Below the pieces are notes generated by a model. That model did not search any database. It saw only the letters and a program-made list of their open reading frames with translations, and was not told the DNA's origin. DNA of 64,000 nucleotides from Bdellovibrionales bacterium (lineage in GTDB: Bacteria; Bdellovibrionota; Bdellovibrionia; Bdellovibrionales; UBA1609), in contig CBDCMT010000001.1 in assembly GCA_965219095.1 (NCBI GenBank), positions 1,696,001 through 1,760,000 of the forward strand, given 5' to 3'. Shown here in pieces: positions 1 to 59,700 of this stretch (the first letter of the stretch is position 1; each line of letters begins with the position of its first letter). The translations under genes and the position numbers were made by a program.

Positions 1-317
1 AGTTATGGACCTATGTTTCACCAACTTGGGCTGGTAAATTTATAGACAGTTGGACGAGACGAGTCATGCTTTCAAAAATTGAACCTATGAAAAGAGAAGC
101 AAAAACCATACGAAGACATAAGCTACTTATTCTTAATTACTTCAAGGCTAAAAAAACCTTCTCCTCAGGGATTGTAGAGGGTTTAAACAACAAAGTAAAA
201 CTCACTATGAGAAAATCTTACGGCTTTAGAACCTCTAAAGCTATAAAAATCGCCTTATATCATAACCTTGGAAAACTGCCAGAACCTCCGGGAACCCACA
301 GATTCTTTTGAGGAGGC
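1..317 (+). mobile_element. ISL3-family element, 3' part (runs off window start); transposase C-terminus 66..311
   Basis: Identical to 41878-42194; C-terminal motif SSGIVEGLNNKVK...SYGFR; right end ...ACCCACAGATTCTTTTGAGGAGGC. Confidence 0.93.
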
Positions 318-481
318 TGTTTTTTTTACAATGTGTAAAGGAAGAGTCATTAAAAAATGGAAAGGAAATGCAGGAAGTTTTCTCTTAGGTGATTAGAATA
401 TTCGTGACCGTATGCAAAAAAAATTTTTTATATTTTTTGTAAATGGAGAAGTGTTTCTTCTTGACATACTTTTTGATAGAC
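318..481 (+). mobile_element. IS110/IS1111-type element, right-end non-coding remnant
   Basis: Near-identical to 53509-53672; ends TTGACATACTTTTTGATAGAC. Confidence 0.88.
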
Positions 482-11437: not shown

Positions 11438-11499
11438 GTCTATGAAAAAGAATGTCAAGAAAAAACACTTCTCCATTTACAAAAAATATAAAAATTTTT
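11438..11499 (-). mobile_element. IS1111-type right-end remnant
   Basis: Reverse complement of ~53610-53672 with few mismatches. Confidence 0.8.
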
Positions 11500-50793: not shown

Positions 50794-51930
50794 TTACTTT
50801 CGTTTTATGTACATTTCATACCAGAAAGAGGATACCTCAGGAGGTAAAGATTGATCTCTTTGGGCCATAAATAAAGCTATAGGGAAGGCGTTATTTTGTA
50901 AAATGATATTTAGTTTTTCTTTATTTGATTCATAAGCCTTTTTATTTTTAAGATCTTTCAGCATTTTTAAAGCTCTTATAATGAATTCTTGTTCGTATCT
51001 AAAAAGCCCTAATTCATCTCTCATCATTCTTATTAGCTTTTTCTCTTTTAGGGGGGCTTCAGGAGATTCTTGAAAGCACTCCCTTGTGATGGATAAAATA
51101 AAGCTAGAAAAAAGTTCTAAGGGGTTATCTTTGTCAATTTTAAAATCATGAAAAGATTTAAGAACTTTAGCTAGATGGCTTTCGGCATGATTGAACGCTC
51201 CTTTTAATATAGGGGCAATGACAGAGAGAACATGAAAGTTGTTAGCCTCAATGAAAGGTAAAGAAGGATCATTAAGCCTTAGTATTTTTATGAACTCCTC
51301 TCTTCTTCTATGAATAGAACTGTGAACTAACTCTCCGACAGATTTTGGAATGGCTTGTCTTAAACTTTCTTCTAAAACAAAATCCAGTTTATAGGAGAAA
51401 CGTATTGCCCGTAAAATACGTATGGGATCTTCCTTGAGTCTTATTTTAGGGTTTCCTATCATATGAATGGTTCTTTCTTTGATATGCTTTAAGCCATTAC
51501 AGTAATCAATAAGGCCTTCTTTAAAAGGATCGTAGAAAATAGAATTGAGGGTAAAATCTCTTCTAAAAGCATCTTCTTTAGGGGTACCAAAAACATTGTA
51601 ATTGATCTTTTTTTGAAAAGCTAAGGCATTGTCATTGAGGTCTTTATGTAAGCCACCTTCTTTTCTAAATGTAGAGACTTCAAAAAGTGCATTTCTTCTA
51701 CGCACTAAAATAAGTTTGAAACGTTTTCCAATAATATAGGATTGGGGAATAAGGGCTTTGATGTCTTTTGGAAGAGCAGACGTGGCAATATCAAAGTCTT
51801 TAGGCTTATAGCCTAAGAGGATATCCCTAATACAACCCCCTACCAAATAGGTTGTGTAGTTTTGAGATTGTAAAATACGTATGATATCAAGAGCTTGAGG
51901 ATCAATATTATTTTTATTAAAACCATTCAT
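50794..51930 (-). CDS. pcnB: Poly(A) polymerase I
   Basis: LVGGCIRD...KDFDIAT; IIGKRF PAP signature; RRDFTLN; EDPIRILRA. Confidence 0.88.
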   Translation of the reverse strand: MNGFNKNNIDPQALDIIRILQSQNYTTYLVGGCIRDILLGYKPKDFDIATSALPKDIKALIPQSYIIGKRFKLILVRRRNALFEVSTFRKEGGLHKDLNDNALAFQKKINYNVFGTPKEDAFRRDFTLNSIFYDPFKEGLIDYCNGLKHIKERTIHMIGNPKIRLKEDPIRILRAIRFSYKLDFVLEESLRQAIPKSVGELVHSSIHRRREEFIKILRLNDPSLPFIEANNFHVLSVIAPILKGAFNHAESHLAKVLKSFHDFKIDKDNPLELFSSFILSITRECFQESPEAPLKEKKLIRMMRDELGLFRYEQEFIIRALKMLKDLKNKKAYESNKEKLNIILQNNAFPIALFMAQRDQSLPPEVSSFWYEMYIKRK

Positions 51931-52079
51931 GTTAATCTACTTATAAGGGCTTTTTTAGAATAAAGGACATTTGTGTGCTGTCGTCAAGAGGAATTTTTTA
52001 TCAGATGGAAGAACAAGAGGAAAAAGGTGTTTGAGCCTGTAAAGAGCCTGTAATACCAATTACAAAAATTAATTTCGAC

Positions 52080-53672
52080 GGTAAATCAAAAAGACAGGTC
52101 ACTGGTTTAAGCCATGATAGTGACCCTAAAGTACTTGCAGAAGGAGGTGAGCTTTTCGAGACAAATTCTAAACCCTTTAGCTGGCCTGGTTTTTAAGGCC
52201 TCAAAGGGAAAAGCAAAAAAAAGATGTAAAATAGGATTTCAAGACTTTATTTATAAACAAACCAACAAAGGAGGAAAATAAAATGTATGATCACTATATA
52301 GCCGTAGATTGGGCACAAAGTAACATGGCCATTTCAAGGATGACAGGCAAATCAAAAGATATTAAGACTATGGACACGATTTCAGATCTTGGGAATCTTC
52401 GTGCCTATTTAAAAACTCTGAAAGGTAAGAAGATATTGACTATCGAAGAGACTACAACTTCGATAGTGGTTGTATTCAGAATTAAAGGATAGTGTTGATG
52501 AGTTCATAGTCTGTGATCCTCTTCGGAACAAACTTTTAAGTGAAGGGGCTAAAACTGATAAAATTGATGCTGAAAAACTTGTTTTATTGTTACGCTCTGG
52601 CCTTTTGAAACCAGTTTTTCACTCAGGTGATGAATTCATTTACCTTCGTAAGATTGTCAGTGGGTATGAAGATGTGGTTAAAAGAGGAGTTCGTGTTAAA
52701 AACCAAAGATCAGCTCTGTTTCGAGCTTCCCATCTTGATGCTAAGAAGCAGACTCAATTAAAACGGGCAGAAGAGATATATTTGTTCTAGAAGGCTTAGA
52801 TAAAGCTATCAGTTCTTATGGGGAGGAGAAAGCACGTTATGAAGCAGAGTTTAAGAGGCTAAGTAAAAAACACAAAGATATTAGCAATCTTAGTAGCATT
52901 CCAGGAATTGGTTCTATCAAGGCTATCAAGATTGTAGCCAGGGTTGTAGTGCCTCACCGATTTAAACGTAATTCCTGGTGGAGTGGACTGCGGACTTGTA
53001 AAGCTACATAAAATGAGTAGTGGAAGGTCTTATGGAACTAAGAAGTCTAGGTTTTGCCCACAAATGAAAAGTGTTTTTAAGATAGCTGCACTCTCAGTTA
53101 TAGGAAATAACAATGAATTTAATGATTTTTATGAAGAATTGATCAAAAAAAATTTACCACCACACACTGCTAGAAATGCTACCAACTAGAAGAATTGCAG
53201 CTTTAACTTTAGGTGTTTTCAAGTCTGGGAAAAAATATAAACCTTATGGAGAACGTAAAAATGTAAATAATAATAAAACAACCTTATAAAATCATCTGTT
53301 TAAAGTTTCTTGCATAGTAAGTAACAATACAAATAATGACTTTATGAGGTGAGGATAGATAGCTTAATAAAAATGATATTTATAAAAAATTCATTTCGAC
53401 GAATAGCACATCCTCTATTCCTGAAATTTACTATAATCTAAGGTTTTAAATCTTTGGAATTCATGATTTAAAACTAAAAAAGGTTCAGATAGACGCATAA
53501 TAGGAATATGTTTGTTTTACAATGTGTAAAGGAAGAGTCATTAAAAAATGGAAAGGAAATGCAGGAAGTTTTTTCTTAGGTGATTAGAATATTCGTGACC
53601 GTATGCAAAAAAAATTTTTTATATTTTTTGTAAATGGAGAAGTGTTTTTTCTTGACATACTTTTTGATAGAC
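52080..53672 (+). mobile_element. IS110-family, IS1111-type element; transposase 52283..53289 frameshifted
   Basis: IAVDWA, IEE, KTDKIDA (RuvC-like DEDD), SIPGIG, SSGRS; sub-terminal IRs ATCAAAAAG 52085-52093 / CTTTTTGAT 53660-53668; GAC at both junctions. Confidence 0.93.
53335..53542 (+). ncRNA. Predicted bridge/seek RNA of the IS1111-type element
   Basis: Hand-folded stems enclose loops with target matches (AAAAATG, ATTTCGAC) and donor matches (ATTTAC, GATAGACG). Confidence 0.7.
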
Positions 53673-53755
53673 ACTCTAAAAATTTAACAGAGTTTGATTA
53701 AAAAGCCAGGACGCTATGCGTTAAAAGAATGTCGAATTAATTTTTGGAAATGGTA
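53673..53755 (-). mobile_element. IS630 transposase-start-side end
   Basis: Matches 58269-58351; followed by TA. Confidence 0.88.
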
Positions 53756-53863
53756 TAACAAGGTAAGAATGCATTCCTCCTTGGAATACATGAGTCCAGA
53801 AGAATTTAAACAAAGGAGGGCTTTAAGAGTATAAAAACTGTCCACTTTTTTGGGGGAAGCTCA
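53756..53863 (+). mobile_element. IS3-family 3' end remnant
   Basis: YNKVRMHSSLEYMSPEEF; end CTGTCCACTTTTTTGGGGGAAGCTCA. Confidence 0.8.
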
Positions 53864-53974
53864 CTTTATTTTCCACTTTTATGCACATTCGAAAAACTCC
53901 TCCCAGTTCTTCTAAAGCAATACCTCTTCTTGTAGAACAGTTAAGAGTAGCCTAAAAAAGTAGGCTATAGTTTG

Positions 53975-54007
53975 AAAAAGGCTGAGAACACAAATCCCAG
54001 CCTTTTT
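53975..54007 (-). terminator. Intrinsic (possibly bidirectional) terminator
   Basis: AAAAAGGCTG...CAGCCTTTTT downstream of the 54052 stop. Confidence 0.7.
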
Positions 54008-54051
54008 AAGTTAACAGACAGAAGTTAAAAGATTATTATTTAATCTTCTTT

Positions 54052-54885
54052 TTAATGATCCCAAGATTTAATGCCATAAACATAAAAGGATTTATAATCT
54101 TTATCTATAAACCGAATCATATAAGTACCCCTAAAAACAGAAATAAAAGTCTCTTCTTTTTTATGGTCAGAGTCATGATCAACGAATTCGTGATAATAGG
54201 CATAGCCCCAGTTAACATCTGGTTTGTTGTGGTGGTTCATACCCAATTCTAATTGGTTCCAACCATTATCAGAAAATCTTAAAATTTTAGCATATTCATC
54301 AAGATTTTTTGATGTGAAATATTTACACTCAGTTTTTACATTATGATGATGTCCATATGAACCACAAAACGTATCAAACCATTTATTGTAAGGTTTAGTA
54401 TATACTTGTCTTACCTTCAAATCCTGCATTTCCTTATTAGTGAGATCCCATGCAAGATGGTAATTTTGCCCTTCAGGATTAATTTTAATTTTGTCGAGAT
54501 TGACACTGACTAGAGTTTTTTCTTCCACCTCAATAAATTGTCTTGTTTCACTATAAACTAATAAATAAACTCCTGCTTCAAGAGAAATCCCTTCGTTTAA
54601 TTTTTGTTTTGTTAAGTTATGGCAACTATATCTTTCAGGAAGTTCAAGATTTCCTCCACAGGCGAAGATCTCATAGTCAGAAGATTGACCGTCTCCTGGA
54701 GTTCCATTGACCTTTAATGTCCCTTTACTTTTAGGGGGAGATATACTGCTAATAATGAAGTTTCCATCATGCATTTCCCATGGAGTTTGTAAAAGTAAGC
54801 TCTGGCTTCCTTCTCCTACGACGTCCCCATAAGAAAGTCCTCCTAAAGACATCAAAAATAAAAATGTTAGTATTAATTTTTTCAT
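54052..54885 (-). CDS. Hypothetical exported protein
   Basis: Signal peptide MKKLILTFLFL...SYG; AGGAGG SD; 277 aa. Confidence 0.75.
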   Translation of the reverse strand: MKKLILTFLFLMSLGGLSYGDVVGEGSQSLLLQTPWEMHDGNFIISSISPPKSKGTLKVNGTPGDGQSSDYEIFACGGNLELPERYSCHNLTKQKLNEGISLEAGVYLLVYSETRQFIEVEEKTLVSVNLDKIKINPEGQNYHLAWDLTNKEMQDLKVRQVYTKPYNKWFDTFCGSYGHHHNVKTECKYFTSKNLDEYAKILRFSDNGWNQLELGMNHHNKPDVNWGYAYYHEFVDHDSDHKKEETFISVFRGTYMIRFIDKDYKSFYVYGIKSWDH

Positions 54886-56780: not shown

Positions 56781-59700
56781 AATAAACATTGGAAGTTTGA
56801 CAAAACAAAAAAGGGATTTGTTCTAGAAGAAGGGCGAAGGCCTGCAAGCTATATTGTGGCAAGCTCAGATACTCGATCTTATGATGACTATGGAAAGATT
56901 GTAGAAATTCCCCTAGTTAATAAAATAAGAAAGAGAATTAATACCAATTACAGAAATTAATTCGACATTTTCATGTTCAAATTTAAAATTTTAAAATTGA
57001 CTTAAGGAAAAGTTTCAGTTAGGAGGTTTTAAAAAAACTTCTTTTAAGGTGAGTTTAAGTTTTCATAAGATAAGTTTATTTCAGGTATATCTATTTGTTG
57101 TGTAAATCGATTGATGGGTTAAAATAAGTGTAAAAAAGTGAGGTTAAAATTTAAAATGACAAAAATCAGTTACACAATTTAATTTATAGGTTCAAATTAA
57201 TTTACAAGCTTGATTCATCTTGTTGTTTTGTCCAAGATCGAGTGCATAATTTTTTAATCCTGCCCTCCTGATCGCAAAAAGTATTCCAGGCCTCACAACA
57301 AGTATTCAGTATATGGTCATAGTTTTTAAAACATGCATTCGATAATTTGATCCTTCGTAATTGTTGCCAGACTTGTTCCATGGGATTTAATTCTGGACTA
57401 TAAGGAGGTAAAGGCATCAGGGATAAATTCTTAGGAACTATCAAAGTCTCTGTGGTATGCCAACTGGCTCTGTCCATTAAAACAATTCCATGATAGTTTT
57501 CTTGAATATTTTTAGATATCTCATCTAAGTGAATTTGCATCATCCCTGAATTACATTCCGGTAAAACCCAAGCACAGCCTTTATCTTTATCCGGACAAAC
57601 TGCTCCAAAAATATAAGTGGATAAAAATTGTCTTTGCCTCACAACTCTAGGCCGTGTGCCTTTTCTTGCCCAAATCCTACTCAAAGAACCTTGCTGGCTT
57701 ATTCTGCATTCATCCTGCCACCAAATCTCTATTTTATTAGTCTGAATCTTTTCCTTTATTTTCTCCACCTCTTCTGGAAAATGTTCCTTAAACTGTTCCA
57801 TAGCTTCTTAATGAACTTTTAGGATGAAGAGAACGACCACTGATCCATACAATATTAAGGCGGTCTAAAGAAACATAAACCCCAGAAAGAGAATAGCAAC
57901 AGTCAAATTCATCTGCTAAAAGTTTCTGTATTTCCTTTGCTCCTATGCTTCCTCCCTCTCTTTTGTCTTGAATTTCATCTAACTTGATTTTGAAGTTCTC
58001 TTCTTCTGTCACTGGCAAACGAGGCTTGCGTCCTCTGCCTTCTCGATCTATCAATCCCTCGTAATCAAAGTCTACAAAATACTGTAACCAAGATTTGATA
58101 CTGTGACGGTGATACAAAACCATACCTGCTGTTTCTTGAATCGATTTTCCTTCTTGCATATGCTGCAAAGCTTGGAGTTTTATCTTGATGTTGGCACTTC
58201 TTTCTACTTTGTAAGTAGCTAGAAAATTATACCCTTGAATCTGTGTAACTAAATCTTTTTTCGACATGACTCTAAAAATTTAACAGAGTTTTATCAAAAA
58301 GCCAGGACGCAATACGTTAAAAAAATGTCGAATTAATTTTTGGAAATGGTATAAGGACTGGGAAAATAACAATTATTCAGGAGTTACGGGAGTTACAAAA
58401 AGATTGCTAGATTTTTGGCATCAAGCCCCTGAAGATTGTGGAAGGCAGTTTTCTTTTTTCTTTTGTCAGCTAGAAGCCATTAAAACACTAATCTTTTTAG
58501 TAGAGGCACCTGAGCATTTAAAAACAGGATTAAAAATTCCAAAAGATGAGTCTTTAAATAGGCTTTGCTCTAAAATGGCCACAGGAACGGGAAAAACAGT
58601 TGTTATGGCTATGACCATCGCTTGGCAAATTCTAAATAAAGTGAATTATCCAAGGGATACTCGCTTTTCAAAGAATATTTTTGTTGTAGCTCCTGGCTCA
58701 ACGGTCTTAGATAGGTTAAAAGCGTTAGAGTTAGGGGGTGAAGAAAACTATTACCGTGAATTTAAAATTATTCCAAATGAGTTTATGGAGAAGATGACTC
58801 AAGGAAAAGTTTTAATTAAAAAGCGTCATCAACTTCAGTGGGAGACAGAAGAAAAACTATCTAAAAGAAAGTCAGTAGATAAAAGAGGGGCAAAGAGTGA
58901 TACAGCTTATGTAAGAGAAGTATTAGAAAATTTAGCTAACCAAAATATTGTCGTTATAAATGACGAAGCTCATCATGCTTGGAGAAGACGATCAGAGCTT
59001 AAAATAAAGAAAACCGATGAAATGACAAAGCAAGAAGCAGAACAAGCTACTAAATGGATTGAGGGGCTTGATCGTATCAATAAAACTCTAGGCATTATTA
59101 ATGTCTTTGATTTTTCTGCAACCCCTTATGCTCCAGCAGGTAAAAAAGCTGATGAGAAAGATTTATTTGAATGGATAGTGAGTGACTTTGGACTAACAGA
59201 TGCCATTGAAGCTGGTTTAGTTAAAACCCCTCGATTTGCTATTGGAGATGATGCTAGTATTGATGTAAAAAACAAAAAAACTAGGCTTTATCATATTTAC
59301 GATAGTGATGAAGTTCGCCCTGATTTAAACAGAAAGACAAAGGAAAATGAATCCTTACCCGATATTGTAAAAATTGCTTATACACACCTCTCTCATGACT
59401 GGGATAAAAAATTTAATCAATGGAAGAACAGTTGTAAAAATGATAGTGAGTTTAGACCGCCTGTTATGATTTCTATCGTAAATAGAAAAGAAACTGCTGA
59501 TAGAATTGAGTTTAGCTTTAAAGAGGAAAATATTCCTTTAGCTAATCAGTTTAACAACCCAAATAAAATGATTAAGATTTACTCTGACTTAGAAGAACGT
59601 AAAGATAAAGCGACAGGCTCAAATAAAGCCTATCAAGAAGAAGTATTTGAAAAGCTCCATACTGTTGGAAAACTTAAAGGTATCGGACAGGATATTCATC

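Follow-up and report, generated by a model that had tools for sequence, protein, structure and literature searches.

A predicted two-loop bridge/seek RNA in the right end of a probably relic IS1111-type element, aimed at an IS630-family repeat in a Bdellovibrionales bacterium

Does the long non-coding right end of an IS1111-type insertion sequence in a Bdellovibrionales bacterium encode a guide RNA, and at which DNA would such an RNA be aimed? The question is raised by one copy of the element (IS110 family), which occupies positions 52080-53672 of the window, that is, of the whole 64,000-nt stretch of DNA that was analysed. In relatives, as described in PMC11208160, PMC11208158 and PMC11187229, the element excises as a circle and its DEDD recombinase binds an RNA with two loops. 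The joined ends are read by loop 2 and the target by loop 1, each through pairing with both DNA strands, and strand exchange takes place at a shared core (PMC11208160, PMC11208158, PMC11187229). The comparisons reported below indicate that the right end very probably encodes an RNA of this kind at approximately 53335-53542, aimed at an IS630-family repeat, and that the system is probably a relic.

The element starts with GGTAAATC and ends with GATAGAC. Its ends were set by comparing junctions from within the genome, about 40 for the left end and about 40 for the right, in which the inner sequence was constant and the outer flanks differed. The 9-bp subterminal inverted repeats ATCAAAAAG and CTTTTTGAT sit 5 and 4 nt from the element ends, and those of homologs read ATGAGAAAG and CTTTCTCAT. 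Non-coding DNA amounts to 383 nt downstream of tnp (the initial annotation had given about 380 nt) versus a leader of 203 nt upstream of the transposase frame. Subterminal inverted repeats with short terminal extensions and a longer non-coding region 3' of tnp are both features of the IS1111 group. The coordinates of all parts are collected in Table 1.

Table 1. Parts of the element at 52080-53672, its flanks and the truncated second copy (window positions).
Feature	Position	Strand	Description
Truncated right-end fragment, second copy	318-481	+	followed at 482 by ATTTTTATG, the right half of target a
Left flank	52053-52079	+	first 27 nt of IS630-type terminal inverted repeat, TTTCGAC variant; ends in left half of target
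Left end and leader	52080-52282	+	boundary from differing left flanks before GGTAAATC in about 40 genomic copies
Subterminal inverted repeat, left	52085-52093	+	ATCAAAAAG
GGTCAC block, left end	52097-52102	+	
DEDD transposase pseudogene	52283-53289	+	ATG 52283, TAA 53287-53289; frame changes near 52465, 52775, 52984 and 53185
Bridge/seek RNA gene (predicted)	53335-53542	+	outer stem 53335-53341 with 53536-53542, enclosing target loop and donor loop
Target-binding domain	53351-53415	+	stem GAGGAT with ATCCTC
Right target guide	53367-53375	+	ATAAAAATG, reverse complement of CATTTTTAT
Left target guide	53393-53400	+	ATTTCGAC; with G 53401, the first base of the left end
Donor-binding domain	53416-53508	+	stem TATTCCT with AGGAATA; hairpin 53443-53452 with 53465-53474
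Right donor guide	53426-53431	+	ATTTAC
Left donor guide	53488-53495	+	GATAGACG, the circle junction
Handshake position	53495-53497	+	GCA
Right-end tail	53543-53672	+	GTGACC 53595-53600; TTGACA 53652-53657; element end GATAGAC at 53672
Subterminal inverted repeat, right	53660-53668	+	CTTTTTGAT
Right flank	53673-53756	+	last 84 nt of IS630-family element, from site b to terminal inverted repeat at 53731-53756

The left-end block GGTCAC and the block GTGACC of the right-end tail are complementary to each other. The counterparts in homologs are GGTCTCC and GGAGACC, or GGCCTC and GAGGCC at locus L079. The two blocks could be either a second inverted repeat or an RNA pairing in which both partners change. 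The window holds further end fragments of the same element family near 11438, 24537 and 25606; among them, one right end reads CATAGAC and one left end has the TTTCGAC flank variant. The truncated fragment at 318-481 is abutted by the 3' end of a transposase-like ORF (window 1-317, ending ...GTHRFF), of which homologous locus L031 carries a full copy of 363 aa.

Some IS1111 members are known to target inverted repeats that belong to other transposons. The element analysed here resembles them, with an IS630-family insertion sequence as host. The commonest left flank, ATACCAATTACAGAAATTAATTCGAC, is a pattern found 114 times in the genome, where it mostly runs uninterrupted into ATTTT[TC]ATGTTCAAATTT. 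An element of about 1.3 kb, present in about 100 copies, begins with this pattern as its first 26 nt; its ORFs match DDE_3 (95.4 bits) and the IS630 family transposase model NF033545 (143.7 bits, cut-off 100). Because its two ends have ATACCA.TT.CA.AAATTAATTCGACATT in common, the site falls within the inverted repeat of this host element. The placing of the target in an IS630 terminal inverted repeat, proposed from the window alone, was thus borne out, the site being 26 nt from the end of the host element. A literature search for an IS1111 element aimed at IS630 repeats returned no such title or abstract opening.

Target a was read from three internally deleted copies (C1:222877-224137, C2:1421822-1422534 and C2:2394665-2393405), with AATTAATTCGAC on the left and ATTTTTATG on the right. 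With a slash marking the point of insertion, the target that the two loop-1 guides would jointly specify is approximately AATT(T)CGAC/ATTTTTAT, 26 nt inside the terminal inverted repeat. Unlike the known repeat-targeting IS1111 elements, the element also uses a second site in its host: site b, TTTTTTCGAC/ACTCTAAAAAT, falls at the start of the first ORF of the same IS630 element, about 1.3 kb beyond target a. Two other sites belong to two other repeats, GGTTAAC/GCATTAAG (site c) to one and CATATAAC/GTCTATTACA (site d) to a second. Comparison of occupied with empty sites (AATTCGAC/ATTTTTATG, TTTTTTCGAC/ACTCTAAAAAT and GGTTAAC/GCATTAAG) showed that insertion is site-specific and that target duplication does not extend beyond the shared core. 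The window copy has an a-type left flank in the TTTCGAC variant and site b, ACTCTAAAAAT, as its right flank; the IS630 interior between the two sites is missing, and the right target guide, which is of type a, has no match to ACTCTAAAAAT.

Some observations concern the host element and its sites. Site b falls at the start codon of the first ORF of the IS630-family element, at window positions 58250-58267 and genome-wide. The empty site b occurs in two forms, CGACACTCT and CGACATGACTCT; the junctions and the type-b guide described below agree with the short form alone. A doubled GAC (CGACGAC...) was seen at some empty or occupied sites, C1(-)367429, C2(-)1430819 and C2:1423839; imprecise excision or insertion may have left it behind as a footprint. 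An apparently complete IS630-family element lies at 56920-58340 of the window. Its ORFs overlap on the minus strand, at 57788-58267 (helix-turn-helix domains) and 57202-57801 (DDE_3); the overlap points to a frameshift arrangement.

To turn to the RNA, all 14 motif coordinates of the initial annotation were confirmed, and the outer stem, two domain stems and inner hairpin that it had drawn by eye recurred in the minimum-free-energy fold of 53290-53690. In this fold AAUGACU paired with AGUCAUU, GAGGAU with AUCCUC and UAUUCCU with AGGAAUA, and the 10-bp hairpin formed (z-score -2.14; 3 of 100 shuffles folded as well). Both loop-1 guides match flanks and the left donor guide matches the circle junction; three of the matches are longer than had been noticed. 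ATTTCGACG (53393-53401) equals the left junction. Pairing of the right donor guide comprises six Watson-Crick pairs and one G-U pair and stops short of the shared C. The right target guide had been matched to CATTTTT at 481-487, read as the right target flank. The match itself holds, but C481 is the last base of the truncated copy at 318-481 and no part of the flank, and the flank belongs to that copy, not to the one at 52080-53672.

According to the proposed mechanism, loop 1 would read the target. Its 5' side, ATAAAAATG, would pair with the top strand of the shared C and the right flank, and its 3' side, ATTTCGAC, which has the sequence of the left flank and the C, would pair with the bottom strand. 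Loop 2 would read the joined ends of the element itself (GATAGAC/GGTAAAT) in the same manner, and the DEDD recombinase would use the RNA to join circle junction and target, exchanging strands at the shared C. Transcription, binding to the recombinase and chemistry we infer from published IS1111 and IS621 work.

As a control for chance, 5000 dinucleotide shuffles of 53335-53542 were made and those reaching the observed match length were counted. The numbers were 163 for the right target guide, 872 for the left target guide, 1478 for the right donor guide and 386 for the left donor guide. The summed match length was reached by 50 of the 5000 shuffles, and all four lengths together by 2. Judged from the window sequence alone, the guide matches are modestly better than chance, since single matches occurred in 3-30% of shuffles. 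The warning in the initial annotation that short AT-rich matches can arise by chance was justified, and the comparison with shuffled sequence that it had suggested spoke modestly for the sum and weakly for any one match. The weight of the case rests on the comparative tests given below and not on the window sequence.

A scan of 51500-54500 against Rfam at E <= 10 gave no family match, with only chance-level hits outside the RNA. A promoter scan gave no promoter-like site directly upstream of the RNA and nothing convincing. Joining of the ends would put TTGACA (53652-53657) 17 nt before TAAATC (52082-52087), and the homologs have TTGACT-17-TAAAAT; this arrangement appears to be a junction promoter of the kind described for the IS1111-type family. 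As the scan showed no promoter-like site just upstream of the RNA and the junction could supply one, the RNA may be cut from a junction-driven transposase transcript.

The RNA region was aligned for about 20 genomic copies, and 19 were used for a column test after the two most diverged had been left out. In the two loop-1 guide segments 10 of 24 columns were variable, versus 20 of 217 elsewhere (Fisher one-sided p = 1.2e-4), and loop 2 hardly varied. In nine copies AAAAATG was replaced by TTAGAGTG or GTAGAGTG; three substitutions, with a fourth in two copies, turn ATAAAAATG into guides of the (A/G)TTAGAGTG type. The reverse complement of this type-b guide, CACTCTAA, is exactly the right flank of site b. 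To judge by this identity, the three changed bases redirect the RNA from target a to site b of the IS630-family element. A third loop version has ATAATAGCG as right and ATGTTAAC as left target guide; its predicted target had 0 matches in the genome at <=1 mismatch. Another loop-1 version, with other letters at both guide positions, was seen in a contig of sequencing run X2, so the sampled population may hold more guide variants than the assembly.

Across the genome, guide type was not associated with the resident right flank. Copies with type-a guides had right flank a once, b three times, c once and another flank once; copies with type-b guides had a three times (two of these being one duplicated segment), b four times, and neither c nor any other flank. 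Such a lack of association could arise if RNAs act in trans on donor ends that are identical, if copies undergo recombination or gene conversion with one another, or through half-match events. A tentative reading, for which we would not claim even odds, is that one IS1111 lineage diversified its target loop within one genome into at least three versions, two of them aimed at the inverted repeat and the transposase gene start of the same IS630-family element. On this reading the guides would form one common pool acting in trans, as all copies have the same donor ends, and such a pool would explain why the guide of a copy fails to predict its own flank. IS630 interiors were perhaps deleted. RNA-guided or half-match events between sites a and b may have caused such deletions, and the window copy, with site a on its left and site b on its right, may be one of their products.

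The transposase frame of the window copy is broken. It spans 1007 nt, or about 335 aa if read through, and full-length relatives have 331-341 aa; by tblastn, residues 5-334 of homolog P0001 were placed in frames 3, 1, 3, 1 and 2. PF01548 matched 52467-52787 with 31.4 bits (cut-off 29). PF02371 matched only a fragment at 52745-53008, with 20.4 bits, just below its cut-off of 21.3, and NF033542 gave 114.8 bits versus a cut-off of 140. P0001, which is 82% identical over 107 aa, has both PF01548 and PF02371 above the cut-offs. The RNA gene could nevertheless still be active if a recombinase that we did not recognise acted in trans, or if the frame changes were bypassed. Diversified guide segments among copies otherwise 95-100% identical would agree with activity, the hybrid flanks (left a, right b) could stem from RNA-guided events, and half-match recombination is reported for IS621 in a preprint (10.64898/2026.08.31.748434). 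However, four other full-length transposase alignments in the genome had no indels versus the window, with longest open frames of 107-116 aa. The longest open frames were 88-127 aa across the 14 regions examined, and no intact copy was found among 20 matches in the genome, whose open frames were <=149 aa. A search of the genome with PF02371 gave two short fragments and nothing more. A search for sequencing runs containing this sequence turned up four of DNA type, all from one study, and none of RNA. Their contigs repeat the window sequence across the places of frame change, and these runs may underlie the assembly itself. Continued activity is thus improbable. Because every transposase copy found shares the four frame changes and no intact copy was found, the IS1111-type system is probably a relic, most likely extinct in this genome.

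Whether the right end ever encoded a guide RNA was judged from homologs. In 40 related genomes no close copy was found, the best match having 34% identity. A search of 5.8 billion proteins gave 432 relatives, of which the full-length ones (331-341 aa) carry both Pfam domains; the nearest full-length relatives are unnamed metagenome proteins, one of them labelled Bacteriovoracaceae. Alignment A1, of 34 relatives, led to 79 loci in species-representative genomes, drawn from 80 of 564 confirmed relatives. These loci belong to many phyla, with identities from 84% (Bdellovibrionales MAGs) to 46%. The non-coding region of the window was found by nhmmer (E <= 0.001) in 42 of the 79 loci, and 39 matches reached the right end. 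The left end was found by nhmmer in three loci only. A Smith-Waterman search with the reversed right end often matched coding sequence and was dropped in favour of a motif search, by which right ends, left ends (C/GATAAAATGAGAAAG...GGTCTC in most) and loop 1 were located.

The 30 non-identical RNAs (alignment A2) gave an RNAalifold consensus with the outer stem, a loop 1 made of a stem, an inner GCU-AGC stem and a small hairpin, and a loop 2 made of a stem, an inner stem and a hairpin. In these 30 RNAs, 94.6% of cells were paired on the consensus, versus 42-50% when the 3' partners were slid by 1-3 columns. Compensatory double changes occurred in 35 of the 44 consensus pairs, and the observed values were reached by 0 of 500 shuffles. 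Of the predicted helices only that between the two donor guides showed no covariation, and it is probably spurious.

Covariation of guides with flanks, the comparison that the initial annotation had recommended, was measured in 35 sequences with 26 distinct loops. The set consisted of the window and the 39 loci minus five in which the loop pattern was missed (L060, L084, L102, L085 and L056). Four of the loops had no left flank and two had too little right flank, leaving n = 22 and n = 24. The right target guide matched its own flank at 7.83 of 9 positions versus 4.37 for other flanks, and its own flank was best or tied in 23 of 24 cases. The left target guide matched its own flank at 6.36 of 9 versus 3.48, and its own was best or tied in 16 of 22. 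For either guide, the observed sum was reached by 0 of 100000 permutations. The right flank of the window was entered one base off (480-491), so that it counted 8/9 in place of 9/9. The loci are not independent lineages and some targets are similar, which counts against the covariation test and not for it.

In loop 2, the left donor guide has the same ATAG[G/A]C as the right end of the element in 30 of 30 RNAs, with A in five; the match of the right donor guide is partial, with CGATAAA in most homologs and GTAAAT in the window. At the nearest relative (L053, 84% amino-acid identity) the loop-2 guides are those of the window and the loop-1 guides are others, and its left guide ACTTCC matches its own left flank. 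In IS621, bases after the core that match the partner DNA after strand exchange have been termed handshake guides (PMC11208158). The 3 nt after the loop-2 core agreed with the opening three bases of the right flank at 49 of 81 positions versus 32.7 expected, a match reached by 0 of 100000 permutations, and the bases after the loop-1 core (CGAT) equal the start of the left end. In the window itself, the bases after the loop-2 core (GCAT, 53495-53498) equal the start of the site c right flank, GCATTAAG, and not that of sites a or b, so the handshake position may still reflect an older target.

The analysis thus yielded sequence matches, a conserved fold, covariation of the guides with flanks and ends, and the guide order of IS1111. 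That the right end is merely protein-binding DNA, with subterminal repeats and transposase sites, and that the flank matches are by-products of AT-richness or of target DNA carried along, would suit the many shuffles with single guide matches and the inverted-repeat blocks that the tail 53543-53672 has in common with the left end, but is scarcely credible: compensatory changes in 35 of 44 pairs and covariation of both guides with unrelated flanks in other phyla are unexpected for a DNA-binding site, and the guides lie 170-300 nt inside the element and so are not carried-over flank. The conserved fold with its compensatory changes and the covariation of guides with flanks argue for a two-loop bridge/seek RNA of the IS1111 type, as was first proposed, and those refuting conditions of the initial annotation that the analysis covered all turned out in favour of this reading.

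The mechanism and the location of the RNA are not new, and the claim of novelty made in the initial annotation was too strong, since bridge/seek RNAs in IS1111 right ends have been published. Durrant et al. 2024 placed a predicted bridge RNA in the right end of IS1111 elements in 93.0% of cases (PMC11208160), and Siddiquee et al. 2024 demonstrated IS1111 seekRNAs experimentally for ISEc11, ISKpn4, ISPa11 and ISPst6 (PMC11187229). As described there, the IS1111 seekRNAs also lie in the longer non-coding region downstream of tnp, accompany subterminal inverted repeats, and have two matches that overlap in the target (PMC11187229). At 331-341 aa, the full-length relatives of the broken transposase fall within the 330-350 aa of that group; the short form of seekRNA is loop 1 alone, of about 80-96 nt (PMC11187229). 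The order within each loop, right or bottom guide before left or top guide, had been read correctly and is that of IS1111, with the top-strand complement 5' of the bottom-strand complement (PMC11187229, section 9). Unlike the four elements of that report, the present one belongs to another lineage, has an IS630-family inverted repeat as target and has only broken transposase copies in this genome.

With the bridge RNA of IS621 and IS110, as presented in PMC11208160 and PMC11208158, the predicted RNA has in common two internal loops, for target and donor, each of which would read both strands around a shared core, and handshake-type bases past the core. It differs from the IS621/IS110 form in that it lies in the right and not in the left end, the guide order within the loop is reversed and the subterminal repeats are long. 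IS621 has the core CT; the shared core here seems to consist of one C, and the G that follows is frequently, though not invariably, shared as well.

The element in this genome appears dead; it is a case of a mobile element that has specialised in disrupting a different one. To the bridge/seek RNA systems under development as genome-editing tools it contributes a natural example that is well documented. In its widespread subfamily the RNA scaffold is strongly conserved, and the targets of more than 20 distinct natural guide pairs are known, and the handshake-type covariation is extended to an IS1111-type RNA. Within one genome, three substitutions would have been enough to switch the RNA to a new site, a case of natural retargeting.
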